A stretch of DNA of 64,000 bases from Patescibacteria group bacterium (GCA_041671125.1 JBAZCA010000001.1:136120-200119); one strand, 5' to 3'; positions 4,949 through 63,044 are shown, counted from the stretch's first letter. The notes: generated from the sequence alone by a model not told the origin. Numbers and translations: made by a program.

Positions 4949-6340
4949 ATGACCACCCCCAGCCTGACCGAAAAAATGCCGCCGCAGAATGTTGAAGCCG
5001 AAGAATCGCTTTTAGGCTGCCTTTTAATTGACAAAGATGCGATTATCCGGATCGCGGATATTGTTTTTGAAAAGGATTTCTATAAGGAAAGCCATGAGCT
5101 TATCTACCGGGCCATGAAAGAGCTCTATACCCGGCGCGAACCGATTGACATCCTGAGCCTTACAAACCGACTGGAGGAAAGAAACGAGCTTAGCCAGGTC
5201 GGCGGCCGGACTTACCTCGCCCATCTTTCCACCGCCGTCGCCACCTCTTCGCATATTGTCCATTACGCGCAGATCGTCCATAGAAAATCAACGCTAAGGC
5301 GGCTTATTGAAACCGCCGCCCAAATCGGCGAGATGGGTTACCGCGAAGACGAAGATTTAGAAAAAATTCTTGACGAAGCCGAGCAGAAAATTTTCGCGGT
5401 TTCCCAAAAATACGTAAAAAATATTTTTGTCCCGATTGACAGCCTCTTAACCGAGGCTTTTGACCGGATTGACGAACTCCATAAGCAGTCGGGAAAACTC
5501 CGGGGCATCCCGACCGGCTATTACGAACTGGACGACATGCTCGCCGGACTGCAGAAATCCGATCTGGTGATTTTAGCCGCCCGGCCGAGCGTCGGAAAAA
5601 CTTCCCTCGCCCTGGATATCGCCCGCCAGTCGGCGGTAAAATCCAAAGCTTCAGTCGGGCTTTTTTCCCTTGAAATGTCAAAAGAACAACTCGTTGACCG
5701 CATGCTCTGCGCCCAGGCCGGCGTCAGCCTCTGGAAAATGAGGACCGGAAAATTATCCGACCGCGAAGAAGACAATGATTTCGCCCGCATCGGCGAAGCT
5801 ATGGGTCGGCTTTCCGAAGCGCCGATTTACATTGACGACAGCGCCAATACCTCGGTCATGGAAATAAGAACTAAGGCCCGGCGCCTGCAGATGGAACGGG
5901 GCCTGGACATGATTATTATTGACTATCTCCAGCTCATGGAAGGCCGGGGAAAATACTCCGACAACCGGACCCAGGAAGTCTCCGAAATCACCCGAGGTTT
6001 AAAAGGCATTGCCCGCGAACTCGGCATCCCGGTCGTCGCCCTTTCCCAGCTCTCGCGCGTCGTTGAGCAGTCAAAGCCGGCCATCCCAAAACTCTCGCAC
6101 CTCCGCGAATCCGGTTCCATTGAGCAGGACGCCGACATTGTCATGTTCATTTACCGCAAAGCTTCAGACCGGAATTACCGCTTAGAAGACCTCTCAGACG
6201 AAGACCGCTATAAGGCCGAAATCCATATCGCTAAGCACAGAAACGGCCCGACCGGCCGGGTGGATTTATATTTTGACGAGCAGACCACGAGTTTTAAAAA
6301 TCTAGACTCAAAATCAAAAACCGACCTCCCGCAATTCTAA
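4949..6340 (+). CDS. dnaB: Replicative DNA helicase DnaB
   Basis: N-terminal PPQNVEAEESLLGCLL motif, Walker A ARPSVGKTS, and the IIIDYLQLM and RNGPTG motifs. Confidence 0.95.
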   Translation: MTTPSLTEKMPPQNVEAEESLLGCLLIDKDAIIRIADIVFEKDFYKESHELIYRAMKELYTRREPIDILSLTNRLEERNELSQVGGRTYLAHLSTAVATSSHIVHYAQIVHRKSTLRRLIETAAQIGEMGYREDEDLEKILDEAEQKIFAVSQKYVKNIFVPIDSLLTEAFDRIDELHKQSGKLRGIPTGYYELDDMLAGLQKSDLVILAARPSVGKTSLALDIARQSAVKSKASVGLFSLEMSKEQLVDRMLCAQAGVSLWKMRTGKLSDREEDNDFARIGEAMGRLSEAPIYIDDSANTSVMEIRTKARRLQMERGLDMIIIDYLQLMEGRGKYSDNRTQEVSEITRGLKGIARELGIPVVALSQLSRVVEQSKPAIPKLSHLRESGSIEQDADIVMFIYRKASDRNYRLEDLSDEDRYKAEIHIAKHRNGPTGRVDLYFDEQTTSFKNLDSKSKTDLPQF

Positions 6341-6365
6341 TAATTATTCATCTATAATATACTAA

Positions 6366-6515
6366 AAGCGAACGGATATTTTCATTTTTGAAGCGAGGAC
6401 ATGTACGCCGCTGAACATGCGTTGATTCCTGGCAAAGGACGTTTAAAAATATAATGCGTCCATGAGAAGAATGCGTGCGTTTCCACAGCGAAAAAATGAA
6501 AATATCCGTTCGCTT
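6366..6515. repeat. Family A hairpin element, copy 2
   Basis: The arms aagcgaacggatattttcattttt and aaaaatgaaaatatccgttcgctt are reverse complements. Same sub-terminal motifs as 960-1120, with a different centre. Confidence 0.7.
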
Positions 6516-6524
6516 AATCGCAAC

Positions 6525-6797
6525 ATGTTCAACAAACTAAAACAGCTGAAAGACTTAAGAAGTCAGGCCAAAAACATCCAGAACGTCCTCGCCGAAGAAA
6601 CCATTGAAGCGGAAAAAGGCGGCGTAAAAATCATCATGAACGGCAACATGGAAGTGAAATCTCTTACCATTAACAACGACATCGCTAAAGAGAGCCTGGA
6701 AGGAATCTTAAAAAACCTCATTAACGACGCCATAAAAAAGACCCAAAAAGTCATGGCCAAAAAAATGCAGGACATGGGCGGACTGCCGGGATTTTAA
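6525..6797 (+). CDS. ybaB: YbaB/EbfC nucleoid-associated protein
   Basis: MFNKLKQLKDLRSQAKNIQ...GGVKIIMNGNMEVKSLTIN is typical of the YbaB family, and it sits upstream of recR as usual. The ORF-track start at 6462 lies inside the family A repeat. Confidence 0.85.
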   Translation: MFNKLKQLKDLRSQAKNIQNVLAEETIEAEKGGVKIIMNGNMEVKSLTINNDIAKESLEGILKNLINDAIKKTQKVMAKKMQDMGGLPGF

Positions 6798-6850
6798 AAC
6801 GTAACACATAACATAAAACAGACTCTGTTACGTGTTCCATGTTATGAGTT

Positions 6851-7453
6851 ATGAAATATCCCAAAAGCATTGAAAACCTGATTAAATTTTTTTCCACCCT
6901 GCCAACCGTCGGACCGAAGACGGCCGAGCGGTATGTTTTTTATTTGCTCAGCCGGCCGGCCGAAGAATTAAAAAATTTCGGGGAGGCCGTCGCCAGCCTT
7001 AAAAACGGCGTTACTACCTGCCCGAGCTGCCTGACCGTTATTGAAAATGGCGGCTGTCCGATCTGCGCGGACGTTAAGCGCGACGCCAGGGAGCTTTGCA
7101 TCGTCGCTGATCCAAGAGATCTCACGGCCATAGAAAGCACAAAAAACTACAAGGGCTATTACCTGGTTTTGGGCGGGGAAATAAACGCCATTGAAGGCAT
7201 TGAACCGGACAGCCTGAATATTAAGGAACTGCTTAACAAACTAAAATCCGGGCCGGTCAAAGAGGCGATTCTCGGCCTCAACCCGACTCTTGAAGGCGAA
7301 ACTACGGCCATGTATTTATCCAGGCTGATTAAAAAAACTTTTCCGGACATAAAGGTTACCCGCCTCGCGCGCGGATTGCCGATGGGCGCGGACATTCTTT
7401 ACGCCGACGAGATGACTTTATCCAACTCATTAAAATACAGGAGCGAAATCTAG
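6851..7453 (+). CDS. recR: Recombination protein RecR
   Basis: LPTVGPKTAERY helix-hairpin-helix, C4 zinc finger (CPSC...CPIC) and a Toprim domain. Confidence 0.95.
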   Translation: MKYPKSIENLIKFFSTLPTVGPKTAERYVFYLLSRPAEELKNFGEAVASLKNGVTTCPSCLTVIENGGCPICADVKRDARELCIVADPRDLTAIESTKNYKGYYLVLGGEINAIEGIEPDSLNIKELLNKLKSGPVKEAILGLNPTLEGETTAMYLSRLIKKTFPDIKVTRLARGLPMGADILYADEMTLSNSLKYRSEI

Positions 7454-7473
7454 CCAATAATCCGGCAAAACAA

Positions 7474-7504
7474 AACAGCCTTTCTTAAATTAAGAAAGGC
7501 TGTT
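7474..7504. terminator. Hairpin between convergent recR and rplU
   Basis: aacagcctttctt-aaatt-aagaaaggctgtt, a 13 bp perfect stem. The U tract is weak on both strands. Confidence 0.5.
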
Positions 7505-7526
7505 AAAGAGTTTCACTGTTTATTTG

Positions 7527-7841
7527 TTAGGCCGCGATCTTCGTGATTTCCACTTTGGTATAAGCCTGGCGGTGGCCTTTGGTTCGGAGATAGCGGATCT
7601 TATTCTTATACTTCACCACGGTTATTTTCTTCCCTTTCGCGGTTTCAATGATTTTTCCGGTTACTTTTTCACCGAGGCTCGGCGCGCCTAAATCCAGTTT
7701 GGCGCCGTCGTCCGAAGCGATCATTAAGGTTTCAAACATAACACTGGCGTCTTTTTCGCCGTCCAATTTTTCAATCCTTAAAGACTGCCCTTCTTTGACT
7801 TTATATTGTTTTCCTCCGGTTTTTATTACTGCGATAGACAT
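7527..7841 (-). CDS. rplU: 50S ribosomal protein L21
   Basis: MSIAVIKTGGKQYKVKEGQ...KGHRQAYTKVEI is canonical L21. Confidence 0.95.
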   Translation of the reverse strand: MSIAVIKTGGKQYKVKEGQSLRIEKLDGEKDASVMFETLMIASDDGAKLDLGAPSLGEKVTGKIIETAKGKKITVVKYKNKIRYLRTKGHRQAYTKVEITKIAA

Positions 7842-7961
7842 ATCAAATCAATTTTTAATTTTTAATTTTTAATTTTTAATGAATCTTCAAATTCACTAAA
7901 AACTATTGCGAGCTGATTATTGTAAATCTTAAATAAAAATAAGCTCTGAAAGCTTCTCTAT

Positions 7962-7989
7962 ATTATACAGATTTTTTCCCGCTTGTCAA
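7962..7989 (-). promoter_or_regulatory. Sigma70-like promoter upstream of rplU
   Basis: Minus strand reads TTGACA (7984-7989), a 16 nt spacer, then TATAAT (7962-7967). Confidence 0.5.
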
Positions 7990-8015
7990 TTGTTGCGGAT
8001 GCCGGCGCCTCAGGG

Positions 8016-8315
8016 CTAATGGCCGCAACAGCAACAGCAACCCTCTTTTTTATCCCGGTGAGCCTCGGCCTCTTTTTCCATTTTTTCCAGCCGTTCATAG
8101 TAATCCGGGAATTCTTTCATGTGCGCCAAGGCAATTTTTCCGGTCATGATTTCGTCGTCATCGGTAACGTTGGTTTCGGAATCAATTGAGCCGTGTTCAA
8201 GCTCAACGTCCATGCCAAAACGGAATTGCTCCAAATCAAATTTACCAAAATCAACCCCGATCTTCTCACCCACTCTTTTAGCGTCTTCCAAGGTAAAATA
8301 TTTCTTCTCGCTCAT
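8016..8315 (-). CDS. Small DUF5661-like protein with C-terminal penta-cysteine tail
   Basis: GMDVELEHG...ALAHMKEFPDYYERLEKME resembles the DUF5661 motif (assigned from memory, not searched). It ends ...KKEGCCCCCGH. Confidence 0.55.
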   Translation of the reverse strand: MSEKKYFTLEDAKRVGEKIGVDFGKFDLEQFRFGMDVELEHGSIDSETNVTDDDEIMTGKIALAHMKEFPDYYERLEKMEKEAEAHRDKKEGCCCCCGH

Positions 8316-8331
8316 ATCGTAAAGTTAGTAA

Positions 8332-9438
8332 TTAATCACCGACGCAATTCTCCCCCGAAAGGGCGCTAGGAATAAAATCCGCCTTGTCCGACTCAAGATT
8401 GGCGCAAAGTAGATATTCGCTCCCGTCATCTTTTTTCAGCTCATAATAATAAACTTTGCTTCCGGCCTGCATATTAAATACGCCGTTATTGGGAGTTGGA
8501 TCGTCAAATTCTTTTTTCTCCTCATCCCAGCAGGTCTCGGCCTTAAAGCGCGCGTCACTGCAGGCTCCGATTTTATTGACCGGGTCGGACATAAGCGGCT
8601 TTAATCCCAGTTCCCCGGCGAAATTTTCCTGCCAGCTCGGCCAGACCGAAATCGTCCTGCCTTTAAGGTAAGTCCCTGATTCCAGTTTCGGATAATAGCC
8701 GCGCTCGTGATAATCTTTTAAAGCGATTTTCATTTCCGCGAGATCGGAAAGCCGAATCGTATCCCGAACTAAACGAGCTTTCTTGCTCAGACAGTATCCG
8801 CCCGCCGGACAATCTTTGTCAAAAAGGCATTTTATGACACATTTATTTCCTTCGCAGACATACCCGTCCAGACAAGTTTCGCCGGAGCAACTTTTTTCCT
8901 CGCCGATGTTTTCGCATTTGTTCGCCGCGCCGTTGTCATTCATCAGATTAACATTGAACTTCCAATGGTCAAGGATTTGACCGAGTATGTCCATGGTCGC
9001 CTGATCCGCGTCCTGGTTATAGGAAATGATATAAATGTTGGTAAAATAATTTTCATAAATTCCGTCTCCACCGTTATCAACGATATTGGCCGCGTTAACG
9101 TAAACCGTCCGGCCGTCGCGAACCGCCTGATAGCCGTCAACCGAGAGCGACTGGGGCGCGCCCTGCACATTTACGTTTTTGGAATACCATCTTAAGGGCG
9201 AAAAGTGGTCAGGATTAGGCATAACCCGGATGGCAATGGCATCAGAAGAACCAGTGTCGGCAGATGCAACCGGTCGGTTTACAGACGTTATAAAAATAAA
9301 AAATGCGCCGCAAAAAAAGAGCGCCGCGATAGAAAGCGTCTTTATTTTTTTCGTCCGGTCATAAAGACACGCCCTCCGTAACTTTTGGATTATGAATTCT
9401 TTAAGGCTTATACCCGTCATACCGGTATTATACCACAA
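8332..9438 (-). CDS. Hypothetical secreted/membrane-anchored Cys-rich protein
   Basis: N-terminal TM helix (SIAALFFCGAFFIFI), a Cys-rich middle (CSGETCLDGYVCEGNKCVIKCLFDKDCPAGGYC), and a C-terminal segment RLSDLAEMKIALKDY. No family assigned. Confidence 0.55.
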   Translation of the reverse strand: MWYNTGMTGISLKEFIIQKLRRACLYDRTKKIKTLSIAALFFCGAFFIFITSVNRPVASADTGSSDAIAIRVMPNPDHFSPLRWYSKNVNVQGAPQSLSVDGYQAVRDGRTVYVNAANIVDNGGDGIYENYFTNIYIISYNQDADQATMDILGQILDHWKFNVNLMNDNGAANKCENIGEEKSCSGETCLDGYVCEGNKCVIKCLFDKDCPAGGYCLSKKARLVRDTIRLSDLAEMKIALKDYHERGYYPKLESGTYLKGRTISVWPSWQENFAGELGLKPLMSDPVNKIGACSDARFKAETCWDEEKKEFDDPTPNNGVFNMQAGSKVYYYELKKDDGSEYLLCANLESDKADFIPSALSGENCVGD

Positions 9439-12722: not shown

Positions 12723-13054
12723 TTGTCATCTCAACCTTAGCGCAACAGAGAGTCATATTTCTTCTGTCATCCTGAGCGTAGCGAAGGATCTGCGGATGCG
12801 TTTCATATATTCACTTTTTATAACGCGCCACCGATTCTTTCTCATACTCTTCAACCTCTTTTTTATTTATCCCGTAATCCTTAAATAACCCCTCGCTTAA
12901 ATCCAGTAAATTTAAAAATGACTGCGGCAAACGACAACCATCTTTATTTAAACCCTTAGATACTTATTTACGTTCGCAGATCCTTCGTCCCGAATATTCG
13001 GGACTCAGGATGACAAAATAAAAAAGGATTTCTCTCTCGCGCTTAGAATGACAG
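12723..13054. repeat. Family C palindromic repeats (tgtcatcctgagcg...ggatgaca), composite copy
   Basis: Left arm tgtcatcctgagcgtagcgaaggatctgcg (12765-12794). Right arm cgcagatccttcg...actcaggatgaca (12974-13014). About 180 bp lies between the arms, with additional half-sites at both ends. Confidence 0.75.
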
Positions 13055-22135: not shown

Positions 22136-22164
22136 TTGACACCAAATCGGAAAAAATGTATTAT
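22136..22164 (+). promoter_or_regulatory. Sigma70-like promoter of the aro operon leader
   Basis: TTGACA (22136-22141), 17 nt spacer, TATTAT (22159-22164). Confidence 0.55.
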
Positions 22165-22195
22165 TAAAAAAGTGAACAAAAATAATAAATAAAAT

Positions 22196-22279
22196 ATGAA
22201 ATTCGGCCAAATCTGGTTTAGCTACTTTTATTTTTACTTTACCCTTAAAACAAGGCCGGTTTTTTGCATTAATCAATAG
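22196..22279 (+). CDS. Candidate leader peptide, Trp/Phe/Tyr-rich (27 aa)
   Basis: MKFGQIWFSYFYFYFTLKTRPVFCINQ, verified codon by codon. 10 of 27 residues are aromatic, covering all three aromatic amino acids. Confidence 0.6.
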   Translation: MKFGQIWFSYFYFYFTLKTRPVFCINQ

Positions 22280-22299
22280 ATAAATAAAATAAGCAAATA

Positions 22300-22328
22300 G
22301 AACCCGGCCCAAAAGAGCCGGTTTTTTT
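22300..22328 (+). terminator. Attenuator terminator 6 nt upstream of the first aro gene
   Basis: CCGGC (22304-22308), 8 nt, GCCGG (22317-22321), then T7. CCGGCC can alternatively pair with GGCCGG at 22254-22259 inside the leader ORF. Confidence 0.5.
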
Positions 22329-22334
22329 AATTTT

Positions 22335-25837: not shown

Positions 25838-25915
25838 TGTCATCCTGAGCGAAGCGAAGGATCTCGTAAATAGAGTCTTACCACGGGATTCTTCGGCCTT
25901 CGGCCTCAGAATGAC
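25838..25915. repeat. Family C palindromic repeat
   Basis: tgtcatcctgagcgaagcgaaggatctcg...gattcttcggccttcggcctcagaatgac. Very similar to 53989-54066. Confidence 0.8.
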
Positions 25916-48309: not shown

Positions 48310-48399
48310 TAAATAAACAAACCTCATATCTCATAACTTTGTTTCAGAATAAAAGTTACGATTTATGAGATATGAGTTATGAGATATGAGTTACGAGTT

Positions 48400-50394
48400 A
48401 TGAGTAATAAAACCGCTTTTGAAAAAATTATAGAAGATCATCTTAAAAAAACTCTTCCAGACGGGAGACTGATATTAAGGCTGGACTGGGTTTGGGGCCA
48501 TGAAATTACGACCCCGAACGCCATTTTAGACATGAAAGCCCGGGGCATTAATTCGGTTTTTAATCCTAACCGGATTAAGCTCATGATTGACCATGTCAAT
48601 CCCCCGAAAGACACAGCTTCGGCCATCCAGGCAAAAATTATAAGGGACTTCGCGCGCGAAATGGATATTGAATTCCTTGAAGTCGGACGGAACGGGGTCT
48701 GCCACGCGGTCATTCCGGAAAAAGGCTGGATCGCGCCGGGCCAGATCGGCATCATGGGCGACTCGCACACTTCCACCCACGGCGCGTTCGGCGCTTTTAC
48801 CGCCGGGGTCGGCACGACTGACCTTGAAAACGCGCTAATCACCGGTTTATGGATTTGTCCGCCCCAGAAAGTTATTCGCGTTAATTTTATTGGTGAGCTT
48901 CCGAAAAACGTTTTCGCCAAAGACTTAGCCTTAACGCTTATAAAAAAAATCGGGGTTAAGGGCGCTACTAACGCGGTCCTTGAATTCGGCGGTCCGATAA
49001 TTTCCGGTTTAAGCATGGAAGGTCGGATGACAATTTCCAATATGGCGATTGAAGCCGGAGCGAGCTCGGGATTAATGCCGATTGACGAGAAAACCATTGA
49101 TTATCTCTGGCTCTCGCTTAAAAAAAAGTATGGCTCAAAAAAAGCGGCGCTGGATGAATTATCAAAATGGAACAGCGACGAAGGCGCCGAATACGAAAAA
49201 ACCGTTGAAATTAGCGCGAGCGAATTAACGCCGGTCATTACTGATAATTACTCACCCGAAGACGTCCATCCGGTTAAAAAATTGGCGGGCAAAAAGATTG
49301 ACCAGGTCTATATCGGCTCCTGCACCAACGGCCGGATTTCCGACTTACGAATCGCGGCCGGAGTATTTAAAACATTCGGCTCCTCCCCCTTACTAAGGGG
49401 GAGGCTGGGAGGGGGTAGCGTCCATAAAAACGCAAGATGCATTGTCGTTCCGGCCAGCCAGCATATTTACAGCCGAGCCATGAGGGAAGGCTTAATAGAC
49501 ATATTTTTAAAAGCCGGCTGTCTCGTCAGCGCGCCGACTTGCGGCGCCTGTCTCGGGATGAGTAACGGAGTGATTGCTCCGGGTGAAACCTGCGTTTCTA
49601 CGACCAACCGGAACTTTCCCGGCCGGATGGGCAAAGGCGGCATGGTGCACTTGGCCTCGCCCCTGACCGCCGCGCTCACGGCCATAGAGGGAAAAATTTC
49701 CGAACCGGGTATTGAGCTCGGAAAAAAAACCGAAGCGTTTATTTTGGCTCTGCCAGAATCCAAAGAACCGCCCCAAGCTTTAACCGGCTGGAAAGAGAAG
49801 ACTGTTCCTCTTCCTGATTTTAAGAACCTGCTAAAAACCATAAGCGCCGGCAAAGAAAAAAACTTCTCCGGAGAAGTTTTTTACCTGCCGATAAAAAATG
49901 TTGACACTGACCAGATAATCCCGGCTCGCTACTTAACCGAAACTGATAAAACCGAACTCGGGAAGCATTGCCTTGAAGACGCGGGACTCACGGATGAAGA
50001 CAGAAAAAAAATTTATCAGTCGCGGATTTTGGTGGCCGATGAAAATTTCGGTTGCGGTTCGTCCCGCGAGCACGCCCCCTGGGCTCTTGAAGCCGCCGGG
50101 ATAAGATGTATCATTGCTCCATCTTTCGCGAGAATTTTTTACAATAACATGTGGAATAACGGCCTTTTATGCGTTGAACTAAAACCTGAGGAAATTAAAG
50201 AACTATTCCATAACAAACCCGCCAGACTTGATATTGACTGGAATGACGACCGGATCAGGACTGAAGCTAAAAAAGAATATAAATTTAAACTATCAGAGTA
50301 TCAAAAAGAATTAATTCAAAATAACGGTAGTGTCGGCGCCATGCTAAAACTGGCGGTAAAGATTTTTCCTCCCCCTTACCAAGGGGGAGGCTAG
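48400..50394 (+). CDS. leuCD: 3-isopropylmalate dehydratase, fused large and small subunits (LeuC-LeuD)
   Basis: Aconitase-family large subunit (GDSHT, IGSCTNGR, CGACLGM, TNRNFPGRMG). A linker follows, then the small subunit (VDTDQIIPARYL, ENFGCGSSREHA). A family D repeat sits in frame at 49381, and the stop lies in the family D repeat at 50392. Confidence 0.85.
   Translation: MSNKTAFEKIIEDHLKKTLPDGRLILRLDWVWGHEITTPNAILDMKARGINSVFNPNRIKLMIDHVNPPKDTASAIQAKIIRDFAREMDIEFLEVGRNGVCHAVIPEKGWIAPGQIGIMGDSHTSTHGAFGAFTAGVGTTDLENALITGLWICPPQKVIRVNFIGELPKNVFAKDLALTLIKKIGVKGATNAVLEFGGPIISGLSMEGRMTISNMAIEAGASSGLMPIDEKTIDYLWLSLKKKYGSKKAALDELSKWNSDEGAEYEKTVEISASELTPVITDNYSPEDVHPVKKLAGKKIDQVYIGSCTNGRISDLRIAAGVFKTFGSSPLLRGRLGGGSVHKNARCIVVPASQHIYSRAMREGLIDIFLKAGCLVSAPTCGACLGMSNGVIAPGETCVSTTNRNFPGRMGKGGMVHLASPLTAALTAIEGKISEPGIELGKKTEAFILALPESKEPPQALTGWKEKTVPLPDFKNLLKTISAGKEKNFSGEVFYLPIKNVDTDQIIPARYLTETDKTELGKHCLEDAGLTDEDRKKIYQSRILVADENFGCGSSREHAPWALEAAGIRCIIAPSFARIFYNNMWNNGLLCVELKPEEIKELFHNKPARLDIDWNDDRIRTEAKKEYKFKLSEYQKELIQNNGSVGAMLKLAVKIFPPPYQGGG
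49381..49420. repeat. Family D half-element in frame within leuC
   Basis: tcctcccccttactaagggggaggctgggagggggtag encodes ...SSPLLRGRLGGGS... Confidence 0.75.
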
Positions 50395-50446
50395 GAGGGG
50401 GTTGTTTTTCCTCCCCCTTACCAAGGGGGAGGCTAGGAGGGGGTTG
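50363..50446. repeat. Perfect tandem duplication of a 42 bp family D unit
   Basis: tttttcctcccccttaccaagggggaggctaggagggggttg occurs at 50363-50404 and again at 50405-50446. It contains the leuCD stop codon (TAG at 50392-50394). Confidence 0.85.
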
Positions 50447-50448
50447 TG

Positions 50449-50868
50449 ATGACCAGAATCTTTAATCTAAAAGCTAAAAAAGAAATCAGGAAAAAGCTTA
50501 GAGCGCAGACTCATGTTGTCAGCTGTGAAAAACTACTTTGGTATAAATTAAGAAAATCTCAGTTAAATTATAAATTCAGAAGGCAACACGGAATCGGAAA
50601 TTACGTAGTTGATTTCTACTGCCCCCGACTAAAGATAGTAATTGAAGTTGATGGCGCCACCCATTCAAGTGACAGGGAAATTCAGTATGATAATTTAAGA
50701 GAAAATTATTTAAAGAGTTTAGGATTAGTCGTGAAGAGATATTTTAATCACGATATTAAATATAGCTTGGGCGCTGTGTTAAGCGATATAAATGAAACTT
50801 GCTTAAAACGAGTTAATCAGCACAAACCCCTCCCTAACCCTCCCCTTCTTAAGGGGAGGGGAAAATTT
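50449..50868 (+). CDS. DUF559 (Vsr-like endonuclease fold) domain ORF with no stop codon before leuB
   Basis: EKLLWYKLRKSQLNYKFRRQHGIGNYVVDFYCPRLKIVIEVDGATH is the DUF559 signature. It is flanked by inverted family D arms and runs in frame into the leuB ATG at 50869. Confidence 0.7.
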
Positions 50869-52056
50869 ATGCTTAAAAAAACAATCGCTCTCGTCCCTGG
50901 CGACGGCTCGGGTCCGGAGATGATGCGGGAAGCTTGCGCGATAGTAGCCGAGGCGGCTAAAAAAGATAATATTAAAATTGAATTCGTAAATACCCCCATG
51001 GGCTGGAATGCTTACCATGAGTTTGGCGATACCCTGCCCGGGGAGTCTTTTAAAAAGGCCGTTAAAATCGGGACGATTTTTTTCGGCGGCGTCGGCGACC
51101 CGGAATTTGACCTGACTATTGGCAAAGAAAAACCGGAGATGATGCCTGAAGCCCGGGCGCTTTTAGCGCTCCGTAAAACCATGGGCCTATTATTGAACTT
51201 CCGGCCAATGGTCTTTTATAAAACCCTGGACCATTTAGCTAATGTTAAGCCGGAAAACATCCCCGAAGAAGGCGTTAAGCAATACTGGATCCGGTTTCTT
51301 CTTGAAGACAGCTATTTCGGCAATATTGACTTTCAGCCCGAGGCTGATCCGCCTTTGGCGAAAAATATCAGCTTCCGCGAAGAAATAAGAAAGAAAATCG
51401 GACTTAAATTAAAACAAGATGTAACGATTGATGATGAAATTATTACTGATCTGGCTTATTATAAAAAATCCACGCTGGAAAAATATTTCCGCGCCTGCTT
51501 TTCTTACGCCCGCGAATTAAACCTCCCGCTCATCTCCGTTGACAAAGCCAATGTCATGGCTCGCCACGATTTTTGGCGGAAAATCGCGACGAAAATCGGC
51601 GCCGAAGAATTTCCGGACGTGAAATTAATCCATCAGCTCGTTGACTCGGCCAATTCAATGCTTTTCACGCCGGCGAAATTAAACGCTGTTATTGCCTGCG
51701 GAAATGAGCACGGCGACATTCTTTCCGACGGCGCGGCCGCGGCTTTAGGTAGTATGGGGCTTATGTGCTCTTCATCAATTAACCCGGAAACGAACGCCGG
51801 ACTTTTTGAATCCGGCGCCGGAACCGCTCCGACTTTAAAAGGCGCGGACAAGGCTAATCCGCTCGGCCGGATTTTAACCGGAGCGCTTATGCTAAGACAT
51901 ATTGGCGCGAAAGTCGGCGCCGAAGCCATAGAAAAAGCCGTCAACCAGGTTTTGCGCGACGGCTACCGCACAGGAGACCTCTTTACCAAAAACGATGACG
52001 CCTCTAAACTGCTCGGCACGTCGGGAATGGGAGAGAAAGTTTTTAGCTGCTTGTAA
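50869..52056 (+). CDS. leuB: 3-isopropylmalate dehydrogenase
   Basis: IALVPGDGSGPEMM, LNFRP and GDILSDGAAALGSMGL are isocitrate/isopropylmalate dehydrogenase motifs. Context is with leuCD and leuA. Confidence 0.85.
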   Translation: MLKKTIALVPGDGSGPEMMREACAIVAEAAKKDNIKIEFVNTPMGWNAYHEFGDTLPGESFKKAVKIGTIFFGGVGDPEFDLTIGKEKPEMMPEARALLALRKTMGLLLNFRPMVFYKTLDHLANVKPENIPEEGVKQYWIRFLLEDSYFGNIDFQPEADPPLAKNISFREEIRKKIGLKLKQDVTIDDEIITDLAYYKKSTLEKYFRACFSYARELNLPLISVDKANVMARHDFWRKIATKIGAEEFPDVKLIHQLVDSANSMLFTPAKLNAVIACGNEHGDILSDGAAAALGSMGLMCSSSINPETNAGLFESGAGTAPTLKGADKANPLGRILTGALMLRHIGAKVGAEAIEKAVNQVLRDGYRTGDLFTKNDDASKLLGTSGMGEKVFSCL

Positions 52057-52331: not shown

Positions 52332-53942
52332 TCACAAGCTCGCCAGATACCAGCTTAAGCAATTGGCGAACGCCTGGGCCGAGGCCTGGTTAGTATCAAT
52401 ATGGACCGCCCGGCCGGAAAAAGTATGGTTTTCGTCATTATTAATTCTTATCCGGCCGTAAACGTCGGCCAAAGCGTCTGATCCGGATGAAACCGCTACC
52501 GGCCGCCAGTCATTAAGGCTGATCTTCACTTTTTTTAACTCGGGATAAAATTCTTCCGCCGCCCGGATTACCGAGTGCATGATCGCGTCATACGGCCCGA
52601 CGCCGACTGAGGCGCTAATGCTTTCTTTGCCGTCAATTTCAACGACCACGGTCGCGGTCGGGAGACTGCCTTCTCCGCCGATAGCCTGACAGCGCTTTAC
52701 TTTAATCGGGAAAGGGATAATATCAATAGTCTCGTGCACAATCGCCGCCAGCTCCCGGTCGGATAAAGGCTTGCCGGCCATGGCCTCGGAAATTTTTACG
52801 GACTCGCTATAAATTTTTTGCAGTTCTTCTTTCCCGAGCGCGTATCCAAGCTCTTCCAGCCTGATGCGAAGCCCTTCCCGGCCGGAGGATTGGTTGATCA
52901 CGGTCGTAACTTTGGCATGACCGTAAGTTTCCGGGTGCCAGCTGTAATAAGCGCTCTCCATTCCCTGCTCCCGAGCTCGGGCTTCTATGGCCTGATGGGT
53001 GCCGGAAGAGCAGATTGAATTTTGCGCGCCGACGACGACCCAATGCCGCGGCACGTTCATGCCTAAGGCGTTCGCTATAAAGCTAACGATTTTTACGCAA
53101 AGCTCCGGTTTAAAATCAATCTTAAAATCACCGAACATGTCCTGCCGGGTATGCATGTTCATAATTATTGCCTCAAGTTTAGTCATGCCCGAGCGTTCGC
53201 CTAAACCGAAAAATGTTCCTTCAATAATGTCCGCGCCGTTTAACACGGCTTGCAGGGCGTTATGGGTTCCATGATCAGAGTCATTATGGCAGTGGATGGA
53301 AATAAGGGCGTTTTTCCGGTTAGGGACGTTTTCTTCAATTAGAGCGATTAAATCCCCGAATTCATTACCAACCCGAAGTCCGGTCGTATCCGGAATGTTG
53401 ACAACATCCGCTCCGGCGGAAATCACCGCGCCGACCATCCGGTACAAAAATTCCCGGCTGGTCCGAGCCGCGTCCTCCGGAGAATATTCTATACTTTTAA
53501 AACCAAGGCTCTTCGCGTAAGCCACCATAGCCCCTGCCTGGTCAATGGTCCAGTTTTGCTTTCCTTCCACAGTATCGCCGTATTTATCGGCGGCGAACAT
53601 GGCTTTGACAAAATCAGGCGAGGCCGGAATATAGATGTGGCATAAATCGCACCCCGCCTCCTTAATCGCGTCAATGTCTTCTTTTTTCGCCCGGGCCAGT
53701 CCGCCTAAAAGCGGCCTTTTTCCTTTGGCATTATTATTCACGAAATCCACAATCCGCCCGCAGTTTTCAAGCTGGACTTTAGAACTCCCGGGAAAACCGA
53801 TCTCAATCCGGTCAATGCCGCCTTCTAAAAGATAGCGGACATAAGTGAGCTGATCCCCGGGACTCATAGCCCCGCCCGAAACCTGGGCTGATTCCCGTAA
53901 GCAGACGTCGTTTAGCTGAATTTGTTTTTTGGCTTCGGTCAT
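52332..53942 (-). CDS. leuA: 2-isopropylmalate synthase family enzyme (a citramalate synthase cannot be excluded)
   Basis: LRESAQ, IEIGFPGSS and HCHNDSDHG are DRE-TIM HMGL-like motifs. C-terminal LeuA allosteric domain (GVGPYDAIMHSV...). Preceded by a Leu-rich leader. Confidence 0.85.
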   Translation of the reverse strand: MTEAKKQIQLNDVCLRESAQVSGGAMSPGDQLTYVRYLLEGGIDRIEIGFPGSSKVQLENCGRIVDFVNNNAKGKRPLLGGLARAKKEDIDAIKEAGCDLCHIYIPASPDFVKAMFAADKYGDTVEGKQNWTIDQAGAMVAYAKSLGFKSIEYSPEDAARTSREFLYRMVGAVISAGADVVNIPDTTGLRVGNEFGDLIALIEENVPNRKNALISIHCHNDSDHGTHNALQAVLNGADIIEGTFFGLGERSGMTKLEAIIMNMHTRQDMFGDFKIDFKPELCVKIVSFIANALGMNVPRHWVVVGAQNSICSSGTHQAIEARAREQGMESAYYSWHPETYGHAKVTTVINQSSGREGLRIRLEELGYALGKEELQKIYSESVKISEAMAGKPLSDRELAAIVHETIDIIPFPIKVKRCQAIGGEGSLPTATVVVEIDGKESISASVGVGPYDAIMHSVIRAAEEFYPELKKVKISLNDWRPVAVSSGSDALADVYGRIRINNDENHTFSGRAVHIDTNQASAQAFANCLSWYLASL

Positions 53943-53954
53943 AATTTAGATATC

Positions 53955-54100
53955 AAAATGACAATGCAAAAATTTAAAATATTGCATCGTCATCCTGAGC
54001 GTAGCGAAGGATCCCGTGAATAGAGCTATTACCACGAGATTCTTCGGCCTTCGGCCTCAGAATGACGAATTATTTTTTCATTTTACATTGTCATTTTGAT
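53955..54100. repeat. Family C repeat nested in an AT-rich outer palindrome
   Basis: Outer arms caaaatgacaatg / cattgtcattttg. Inner gtcatcctgagcgtagcgaaggatcccg...cggcctcagaatgac (53989-54066). Confidence 0.75.
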
Positions 54101-54123: not shown

Positions 54124-54154
54124 TAATATAAAACGCCACCCTTTTTTAGGTGGC
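54124..54154 (-). terminator. leu attenuator terminator
   Basis: Minus strand reads GCCACC-UAAAAAA-GGGUGGC followed by GUUUUAUAUU. GCCACC can alternatively pair with GGGUGGC at 54191-54199 inside the leader ORF. Confidence 0.65.
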
Positions 54155-54179
54155 TTTCTTTCAATCTTCATCTAGTAAA

Positions 54180-54269
54180 CTACGTAAAAACCGCCACCCG
54201 TCTTAAAGGCAACAAGAGCAACAAGTTTAAAAACGGTTTAATATTTAATTTTTGATTTATTTTAAACAT
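54180..54269 (-). CDS. Candidate leader peptide, Leu-rich (29 aa)
   Basis: MFKINQKLNIKPFLNLLLLLPLRRVAVFT, verified codon by codon. 8 Leu, 5 of them consecutive (TTG TTG CTC TTG TTG). Confidence 0.65.
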   Translation of the reverse strand: MFKINQKLNIKPFLNLLLLLPLRRVAVFT

Positions 54270-54283
54270 ATAAAACCGCGCGG

Positions 54284-54412
54284 CTAAGCGACTTTCAAGA
54301 TTGATTTTATTTTTCTAACGTCCTCTTCCAGCGTCTTTACCATACCCAAAACAATCTCATTTTTCTCATCAAACTTATTTAATATTTCAAGTTTTTTATT
54401 ATCCTTGTCCAT
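54284..54412 (-). CDS. Candidate 42-aa helical small ORF preceding the Leu leader
   Basis: MDKDNKKLEILNKFDEKNEIVLGMVKTLEEDVRKIKSILKVA. The ATG lies 9 nt after a consensus -10 box. Its stop is 14 nt before the Leu-leader ATG. Confidence 0.4.
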   Translation of the reverse strand: MDKDNKKLEILNKFDEKNEIVLGMVKTLEEDVRKIKSILKVA

Positions 54413-54421
54413 ATTAACTCT

Positions 54422-54450
54422 ATTATATAAGCGGAGTCAGAAGTTGTCAA
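54422..54450 (-). promoter_or_regulatory. Consensus sigma70 promoter
   Basis: Minus strand reads TTGACA (54445-54450), 17 nt spacer, TATAAT (54422-54427). Confidence 0.65.
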
Positions 54451-54470: not shown

Positions 54471-54495
54471 GGCTGCCTGGAAAAACAAGGCAGCC
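54471..54495 (-). terminator. Hairpin terminator after the Cys-rich ORF
   Basis: Minus strand reads GGCUGCCUUG-UUUUU-CCAGGCAGCC followed by UUCUCUUCUU. Confidence 0.5.
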
Positions 54496-62783: not shown

Positions 62784-63044
62784 AGCGTTGCGTCATTTTA
62801 GGCAAATTAGATTCGCTTAAAATGATATTAATTTTTACCTGGCCGGAAAACAAAAAGCTCCCCGCCAGCGATAACCATTTCTGGTCATCCATATCCCTTT
62901 CGGAATATGGCCAACCAAGGCATTCTGACGAGGAGTCATTTACCTTGGTTGGACTTTGTGCCATGCCTCAAGCATTAAAATGATTGAAGTTTAGGCTTAA
63001 ATTGTTATTCTAATATTAAAACTTTTTTAAACATTTGTAAACAT

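Follow-up and report, generated by a model that had tools for sequence, protein, structure and literature searches.

In a stretch of 64,000 nucleotides (nt) of DNA from a metagenome-assembled genome (MAG) of an uncultivated member of the Patescibacteria (candidate phyla radiation, CPR), here referred to as the window, the gene leuA on the minus strand is preceded by a short open reading frame (ORF) rich in Leu codons and by an intrinsic terminator. Judged from its sequence, this element quite probably is a ribosome-mediated leader-peptide transcription attenuator, which would tie the transcription of leuA to the supply of charged tRNA-Leu. The original prediction for this region had named a promoter, a first small ORF (sORF1), a spacer, the leader ORF, a GGGTGGC motif and a terminator, and all of them are present on the minus strand where they had been placed; its reading of the Leu leader as an attenuator of leuA gained strong support from the presence of the leader in 13 of 14 loci, from synonymous Leu codons and from compensatory changes in both helices. 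The comparison covered 14 loci encoding the same Patescibacteria-type LeuA subfamily (LeuA identity 48-100%), among which the window together with the loci L001 and L002 makes up the window's own clade (LeuA 84-100% identical); L002 and L090 stem from the sample JGI 3300014208. Ordinary LeuA loci at 31-35% identity served as negative controls (n=79); they came from scanning metagenomes with 43 aligned LeuA proteins, which returned at least 79 such ordinary loci and, among the matches listed, one locus of the right subfamily.

Anatomy and conservation of the leucine leader

The leader ORF (54180..54269, like all features of the element on the minus strand) consists of 29 codons and a stop and encodes MFKINQKLNIKPFLNLLLLLPLRRVAVFT, a peptide with eight Leu among its 29 residues, five of them consecutive. 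These five putative regulatory codons (codons 16-20, 54210..54224) read TTG TTG CTC TTG TTG; TTG, which fills four of the five positions, ranks second-rarest among the Leu codons of 12 long window genes (49 of 507). The final Leu codons together with the adjoining Pro codon are here called segment 1, and codons 24-26 contain segment 2, GGGUGGC (54193..54199). The stop codon is followed after 25 nt by the intrinsic terminator (54128..54154), built of GCCACCU (segment 3, 54154-54148), a loop of six A, GGGUGGC (segment 4, the 3' arm, 54141-54135) and then GUUUUAU; its stem has seven pairs (-13.6 kcal/mol) and shows covariation, and from its end to the ATG of leuA there are 185 nt. Segment 2 closely mimics segment 4 and can pair with segment 3, forming a putative antiterminator. 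A further hairpin, in which UUGUUGCC pairs with GGGUGGCGG and which is followed by U5 (54191..54215), joins segments 1 and 2; a hairpin scan flagged it together with its T-run in the window, L001 and L002, and a role as pause and anti-antiterminator element is plausible.

A Leu-run mini-ORF followed by a hairpin with U-tract directly upstream of leuA is kept in 13 of the 14 loci of the subfamily, with peptides such as MFKMLIKLTVKLFNLLLLLPLRRVAVFS, MKIKSLKLNLLLLLPLKRAAILC, MKTAKQKNLSLNLLLLLPKRVAVFHA, MKQVTLKNLLLGLLLLLLPQRVACFNVKI, MKTTAKKQLLLSLLLLLPNRVDVFRTTI and MNICTAQNLLALLLLVEEGFCVG. The Leu blocks hold between 5/5 and 9/10 Leu, all six Leu codons occur in them, and within the run TTG in the window stands against CTA in L001. 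Leu identity thus is constant despite synonymous codon swaps, which argues for selection on the amino acid, not on the bases, and suggests that the frame is read. The peptides show the conserved pattern M-K-x-[NQ]-LLLxLLLLLP-x-RVAxF, the tail of which, R-V-A-x-F, is encoded by GGGUGGC and the U-run, a copy of the 3' half of the terminator; the tail therefore changes whenever the terminator does. Between the window and L001 the stretch from the Leu run to the U-tract is 85.6% identical, compared with 80.1% for leuA itself.

Both helices are supported by pairing as well as by covariation. Hairpins preceding a U-run were found in 13/13 loci, with energies of -9 to -19 kcal/mol, and in each of these loci the 5' arm of the terminator has its pairing partner at the 3' end of the leader ORF (-13.6 to -19.7 kcal/mol, as opposed to -5.5 to -9.2 kcal/mol for shuffled sequences), so that the antiterminator proposed originally, GGGUGGC of codons 24-26 with GCCACC, has counterparts in all of them. 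Arm and partner change together as GCCGCCC/GGGCGGC in L002, as UCAGCCGCC/CGGCUGA in L086 and as AGCUAUCC/GGAUAG in L004, and the class formed by L091 and L092 carries a wholly different yet mutually matching trio, UGUGUUGGG, CCUGACAC and GUCAGG. RNAalifold, given 11 sequences, predicts the antiterminator unaided, its central pair being UA in eight, CG in two and UG in one of them. As alignments made with MAFFT or fitted to a model shift the register of segment 4 inconsistently, pairs were counted on excerpts in which three 7-nt segments were registered by hand, their order verified in the natural sequences, and joined by fixed linkers. In these hand-registered excerpts 96.4% of the antiterminator positions are paired, with four of the seven pairs changed on both sides, and the terminator reaches 95.8%, with compensatory changes in four of six pairs. 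None of 500 shuffles attained the observed values for either helix, and in slid controls 24-69% were paired.

The element also is specific. A covariance model built from 11 leaders matched all 11 training sequences at E<=2.5e-9 and found nothing in the 79 distant ordinary leuA loci at E<=1. No Rfam family, including Leu_leader (RF00512) and the other amino-acid leaders, reached its gathering score at the Leu element of the window or of the 13 related loci, and between 53800 and 54700 no T-box, riboswitch or Leu_leader was matched even at E<=10. The Leu element always is linked to leuA. In L085 and L088 a second LeuA-family gene lies directly upstream (108-1199 and 82-1779, respectively), and since the leader there stands between two LeuA paralogues, it would control only the second.

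The following course of events would be in line with this anatomy. Transcription would start from the consensus promoter at 54450-54422, pass sORF1 and enter the 29-codon leader, and we infer that the leader is translated and that its ribosome responds to Leu. When charged tRNA-Leu is scarce, the ribosome would stall on the five Leu codons and cover segment 1, leaving segment 2 free to pair with GCCACC of segment 3 as soon as the latter is transcribed; the resulting antiterminator would block the terminator and RNA polymerase would continue into leuA. With plentiful Leu the ribosome would reach the stop codon and cover segment 2, or the 1:2 hairpin would re-form behind it, and with segment 2 unavailable segments 3 and 4 would pair and transcription would end at the U-tract. 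The geometry of the window, L001 and L002 fits the original proposal that a stalled ribosome exposes GGGUGGC and a ribosome at the stop codon buries it: when the transcript was folded only up to segment 3 with the footprint of the ribosome masked, all seven bases of segment 3 paired with segment 2 if the A site was placed on the Leu run, and 0-2 of the seven if the ribosome stood at the stop codon.

Objections, rival readings and the upstream ORF

Several observations weigh against such an attenuator. One locus of the subfamily, L089, has no Leu leader. The helix registers chosen by hand favour pairing, and L091 contributes many of the double changes; the covariation is nevertheless consistent with the duplex energies and with the RNAalifold prediction. 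The 1:2 hairpin is weak (-4 to -8 kcal/mol in 10 of 11 loci of the main class) and no better than in shuffled sequences, and in several distant members of the subfamily, for which folding up to segment 3 does not separate the states cleanly, a ribosome at the stop codon would not reach segment 2 to mask it, so that there the 1:2 hairpin would need to do so. Equilibrium minimum free energy (MFE) folding of the full leader of the window prefers the terminator in every ribosome state, and therefore the switch must be kinetic; as the terminator usually wins, folding of the full leader with ribosome masks was dropped as a discriminator. The ATG of the window leader is internal, lacks a Shine-Dalgarno sequence (SD), lies about 145 nt from the sole good promoter and is held in a weak AU hairpin. 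Finally, 237 nt, including a palindromic element of 147 nt, separate the leader stop from leuA, and L001 has a promoter-like match (10/12) between terminator and leuA.

The last two points would equally suit another explanation, namely that hairpin and U-tract merely terminate the transcript of sORF1, that leuA has a promoter of its own and that the Leu ORF is a chance frame. A run of five Leu codons is by itself not rare, as the six frames of the window hold two and shuffled sequences about one; chance does not account for the place in front of leuA, for the conservation in 13 of the 14 orthologous loci or for the covariation. We consider a chance frame very improbable, and the comparative sequence data already contradict it: the Leu ORF, terminator and antiterminator persist down to 48% LeuA identity and sORF1 does not, the Leu codons vary synonymously, and both helices covary. 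In addition, there is no promoter match on the minus strand from 54422 to leuA, and the -10 hexamer of the site in L001 ends 4 nt before the ATG, too close for a normal leuA transcript. The conserved peptide pattern could also indicate that the small hydrophobic peptide itself is the product, a membrane or regulatory micropeptide instead of just a sensor of translation speed, and leader peptides acting in trans do exist, for example peTrpL (PMC7298713). This reading, too, is very improbable, given that the C-terminal RVAxF is explained by RNA pairing, that the tail of L091 and L092 changes completely along with the terminator, that in L005 a Met/Ala block stands before this tail in place of the Leu block, and that the element is linked to leuA throughout.

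A sigma70-type promoter, TTGACA-17-TATAAT (54422..54450, minus strand), matches the consensus at 12 of 12 positions; no other such match exists in the 4 kb scanned, and on this strand nothing else upstream of the leader matches a promoter well. Ahead of it, a hairpin with the arms GGCTGCCT-N9-AGGCAGCC (54471..54495), followed by a T-rich tract (54470-54461), was read directly from the sequence, its loop of 9 nt being one too long for the hairpin scan. It probably is the terminator of the upstream unit, and the promoter would therefore begin a new transcript. The ATG of sORF1 (MDKDNKKLEILNKFDEKNEIVLGMVKTLEEDVRKIKSILKVA, 42 amino acids (aa), 54284..54412, minus strand) comes 9 nt after the -10 hexamer, a distance that would make this ORF leaderless or nearly so. 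No single amino acid is enriched in sORF1, and among 5.8 billion proteins it has no relatives apart from a strain variant with 98% identity. Its stop codon is separated by 14 nt from the ATG of the Leu leader. Farther upstream, about 750 nt (55629-54878, minus strand) are 74% identical to L001 2148-2875 and contain internal inverted matches; the sole ORF shared by the two is short (about 76-100 aa) and ends in ...GPMTYGY[YF]A[MV]P[AE]KRR.

That the leader has neither an SD nor a nearby promoter was correctly seen in the original prediction (the best promoter match within 45 nt of the ATG is 8/12), but its description as unusual does not hold for the missing SD. Almost none of about 46 long ORFs of the window, leuA included, has an SD-like sequence before its first start codon, and their starts sit in AU-rich sequence; an SD-less leader ATG therefore is normal for this host genome. 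The leader of the window most likely starts by the SD-independent initiation used by nearly all genes of the genome, possibly helped by a ribosome terminating just upstream. In the more distant relatives L003-L005 and L085-L092, strong SDs are found before leuA.

The original prediction had gone further and suggested that sORF1 and the leader form a two-ORF attenuator coupled by reinitiation. In its strict form, the leader would be translated only after sORF1, through termination-reinitiation or scanning of 70S ribosomes over the 14 nt, and translation of sORF1 would gate the attenuator. There are arguments for such a design: sORF1 starts 9 nt past a perfect promoter, as leaderless leaders do elsewhere; an upstream ORF ends near the leader ATG in all three members of the clade (+14 nt in the window, then -8 nt, with the overlap ATGTTTAA, and +4 nt); none of the three has a promoter better than 8/12 within 45 nt of this ATG; and a terminating ribosome would open the weak hairpin in which the ATG lies. 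The comparative data, however, make an obligate two-ORF design unlikely. Ten of the 13 loci with a leader have no upstream ORF, and in them the distance from the end of a sigma70-like promoter to the leader ATG is 6-17 nt (mostly 12), so that a leaderless or near-leaderless Leu leader would be the normal state of the subfamily. An ORF between promoter and leader is confined to the window, L001 and L002 (42, 137 and 142 aa), and although the two longer ones resemble each other, sORF1 is not detectably similar to them and remains an orphan. A descent of sORF1 by decay from the 137/142-aa ORF that occupies its place in L001 and L002 was considered and dropped, since BLASTP, tblastn, blastn and MAFFT gave nothing significant; no alignment with L001 was obtained for the region of sORF1 and the promoter. 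A promoter for the leader inside the upstream ORF was likewise rejected, the best candidates in the window, L001 and L002 reaching 7-8/12. Internal starts without an SD are the rule in the window, and the spacing is weak evidence because in compact genomes neighbouring genes often overlap or lie close together.

Upstream ORFs in front of leuA homologues thus proved to be a feature of the window clade. sORF1, which is no part of the conserved attenuator element, looks like a lineage-specific accident. The original prediction would have been refuted by an sORF1 that is neither conserved nor needed; sORF1 indeed is not conserved, while the spacing of +14, -8 and +4 nt would still permit coupling. 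Reinitiation at the leader of the window accordingly may be possible, neither needed nor conserved. It is doubtful, too, that in the window clade an ancestral leaderless leader has become a second cistron, loaded by a 70S ribosome re-initiating within -8 to +14 nt of the upstream stop, with translation of an unrelated ORF gating the attenuation of leuA.

The leuA surroundings and further leaders

The gene behind the attenuator (52332..53942, minus strand) encodes a LeuA-family, 2-isopropylmalate synthase-like protein of 536 aa, in which an HMGL-like and a LeuA_dimer domain are found; a protein of identical sequence is annotated in a MAG of the Patescibacteria group. Among the NCBIfam models those for 2-isopropylmalate synthase match it best, with scores below their curated equivalog cut-offs. 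A fused leuCD and leuB, cognate genes of the pathway, adjoin leuA and converge on it (48379-52056, plus strand). In L001 the order is leader, leuA, leuCD and leuB on one strand, with leuCD-leuB at 5600-8706, and the pair thus is inverted in the window. No Leu leader is found upstream of leuCD in the window; the element found there was rejected as a candidate, since it goes with the divergently oriented gene of the opposite strand, and the sequence upstream of leuCD contains a TTGACT-17-TAATAT match and a hairpin with repeats of the ATGAGATATGAG type. The leuB frame (50446-52056, plus strand) is open for about 140 additional codons at its 5' end, the Iso_dh match beginning at about 50866; this additional stretch resembles a small endonuclease-type domain of its own, which continues into LeuB in the same frame without an intervening stop.

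The palindromic element between terminator and leuA (about 147 nt, 53953..54099, minus strand) folds into a long hairpin outside the conserved attenuator, and an identical copy of one arm lies at 25887-25915. Neither this element nor the distance of 237 nt from leader stop to leuA had figured in the original prediction. L001 lacks the element, and its spacing from terminator to ATG equals that of the window minus the element. The element belongs to a family of palindromic repeats with the core GTCATYCTGAG...CTCAGRATGAC (54114-53938 and 25887-25915), which are intergenic, often stand directly before start codons and appear as 'HPERSEGS' in ORF lists; copies of the motif lie at 12766, 13004, 20016, 25839, 25905, 28421, 44880, 52107, 52278, 53989, 54056 and 55729. 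A LOOT RNA (RF03000) was found at 62870-62997 on the minus strand, with 79.5 bits.

The covariance model of the Leu element also picked up other leaders of the same layout in the window and its relatives. One of them, on the plus strand (22136-22334), has an aromatic-rich leader, MKFGQIWFSYFYFYFTLKTRPVFCINQ (ORF 22196-22279), behind a TTGACA-17-TATTAT promoter (22136-22164). Here GGCCGG (22254-59) is complementary to CCGGCC (22304-09); CCGGC-N8-GCCGG followed by T7 (22304-22328) forms the terminator. The operon downstream comprises genes for ADH synthase, dehydroquinate synthase II, aspartate kinase, aspartate-semialdehyde dehydrogenase, EPSP synthase and shikimate kinase/dehydrogenase, that is, an archaeal-type aromatic pathway. 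On the minus strand (48253-48092), an Ile/Val-rich leader, MIKKLPKNLDIVVVVSLIIPT (ORF 48218-48153), begins 6 nt after TTGACA-17-TAGAAT. A perfect antiterminator of 10 bp, GUGGCAGUUU:AAACUGCCAC, is opposed there to the terminator CCACC-N6-GGTGG with T6 (48113-48092), and a GC-rich palindromic insert of about 150 nt and then a threonine-synthase-like protein of 620 aa fused to a LeuA_dimer domain follow; the element also is present in L001 (8800-8910). A fourth attenuator-like element (18692-18489, minus strand) has a Thr/Ile/Met-rich leader, MTRINATTIKTIMMMTGIIMTGVLIAGGENKLEVRS (ORF 18657-18547); GCGGGCGGC can pair with GCCGCCCGC as a 9-bp antiterminator, with CCGCCC-N7-GGGCGG and a U-tract as terminator (18516-18489). 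Its promoter is uncertain: TTGACA is present, and TAAATA in the -10 position is missing the last T. At a distance of about 1.1 kb follow a stand-alone LeuA_dimer-domain protein (17391-16975) and the threonine synthase gene thrC (16781-15423).

Related scaffolds occur in other loci. L005 (3310-3450) has a Met/Ala-rich leader, MKQAIRHNAMAVMMAAATPQRVACFHI, which shares the PQRVACF tail and the terminator with the Leu leader of the same locus and, judging by this, looks like a duplication with swapped sensor codons. L088 (4529-4625) has a leader with six consecutive Asn codons, MKRYCAQMNNNNNNWLKTGFFSCVKK, and L090 (40-115) one on the same scaffold, MRTALNNIIISIIITT. Attenuation thus looks like a general strategy in these genomes, and the existence of further leaders with the same layout raises our confidence in the Leu element.

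Relation to known attenuators

The Leu element would work like several known systems and, by covariance model, is a member of no curated family. With the enterobacterial leuL (RF00512) it has in common a short ORF with consecutive Leu codons, overlapping alternative hairpins and an intrinsic terminator upstream of leuA, as well as a rare Leu codon in the run, which is CUA in E. coli leuL and TTG in the window. The two differ in that there is no covariance-model similarity, and the leader of the window is SD-less, has its promoter 145 nt away with an ORF between, and belongs to a Patescibacteria MAG. Leaderless Leu leaders upstream of leuA have been described for Streptomyces lividans (LeuL1, MRFGLLLLSCRGEGL; PMC8079986) and Corynebacterium glutamicum (cg0303; PMC3890552). 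Like these, the Patescibacteria leaders are Leu-run mini-ORFs before a monocistronic leuA, without an SD, and in 10 of 13 loci the -10 hexamer ends 6-17 nt ahead of the ATG, which would place the leader start at the transcript's 5' end or close to it. The actinobacterial leuA leaders are stated to be without a typical Rho-independent terminator (PMC8079986), whereas the Patescibacteria Leu leaders always have a canonical hairpin with U-tract (13 loci), and the copy in the window itself is not leaderless.

The ilv-leu operon of Staphylococcus aureus is controlled by a 26-aa Leu/Ile-rich attenuator peptide, followed by a terminator hairpin to which an antiterminator fold is the alternative; there, too, conservation of Leu codons and terminator across species was taken as evidence (PMC5794164). 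It differs from the present element in having an SD 9 nt upstream of the leader, in controlling ilvD and the whole ilv-leu operon, and in an antiterminator that sequesters the poly-U tail; the Patescibacteria antiterminator uses the 5' arm of the stem. The best Rfam match, Phe_leader (RF01859), extends over the full model at 54126-54252 and scores 28.2 bits, the gathering score being 55 (E=0.02 in a search of 901 nt). The likeness consists of a leader ORF, nested hairpins and a terminator, and as the similarity lies mostly in the terminator, the element of the window is not a member of this family. Two small ORFs in series before a regulated gene are also known from ermA, where both tandem leader ORFs are conserved sensor parts of a translational attenuator; in the window, by contrast, the first ORF is unconserved and is absent from most members of the subfamily.

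The mechanism itself is textbook knowledge, here found conserved in a Patescibacteria lineage; in the literature searched, no paper linked CPR or Patescibacteria with leader peptides or attenuation. Leader-peptide attenuation needs a ribosome that closely trails RNA polymerase. Conserved, covarying attenuators are therefore indirect evidence for coupled transcription and translation in these uncultivated and reduced bacteria, and at the same time for regulation of the few amino-acid pathways which they retain. The loci offer a natural series, from a leaderless leader (6 nt past the -10 hexamer) through leaders with a short untranslated region to a leader behind another ORF. If true, the coupled two-ORF attenuator of the window clade would be an arrangement not described elsewhere. 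With at least four different amino-acid leaders within a single window of 64 kb, this set is a good point from which to begin annotating the regulation of CPR genomes and to ask by what route attenuators become duplicated and switch their specificity.

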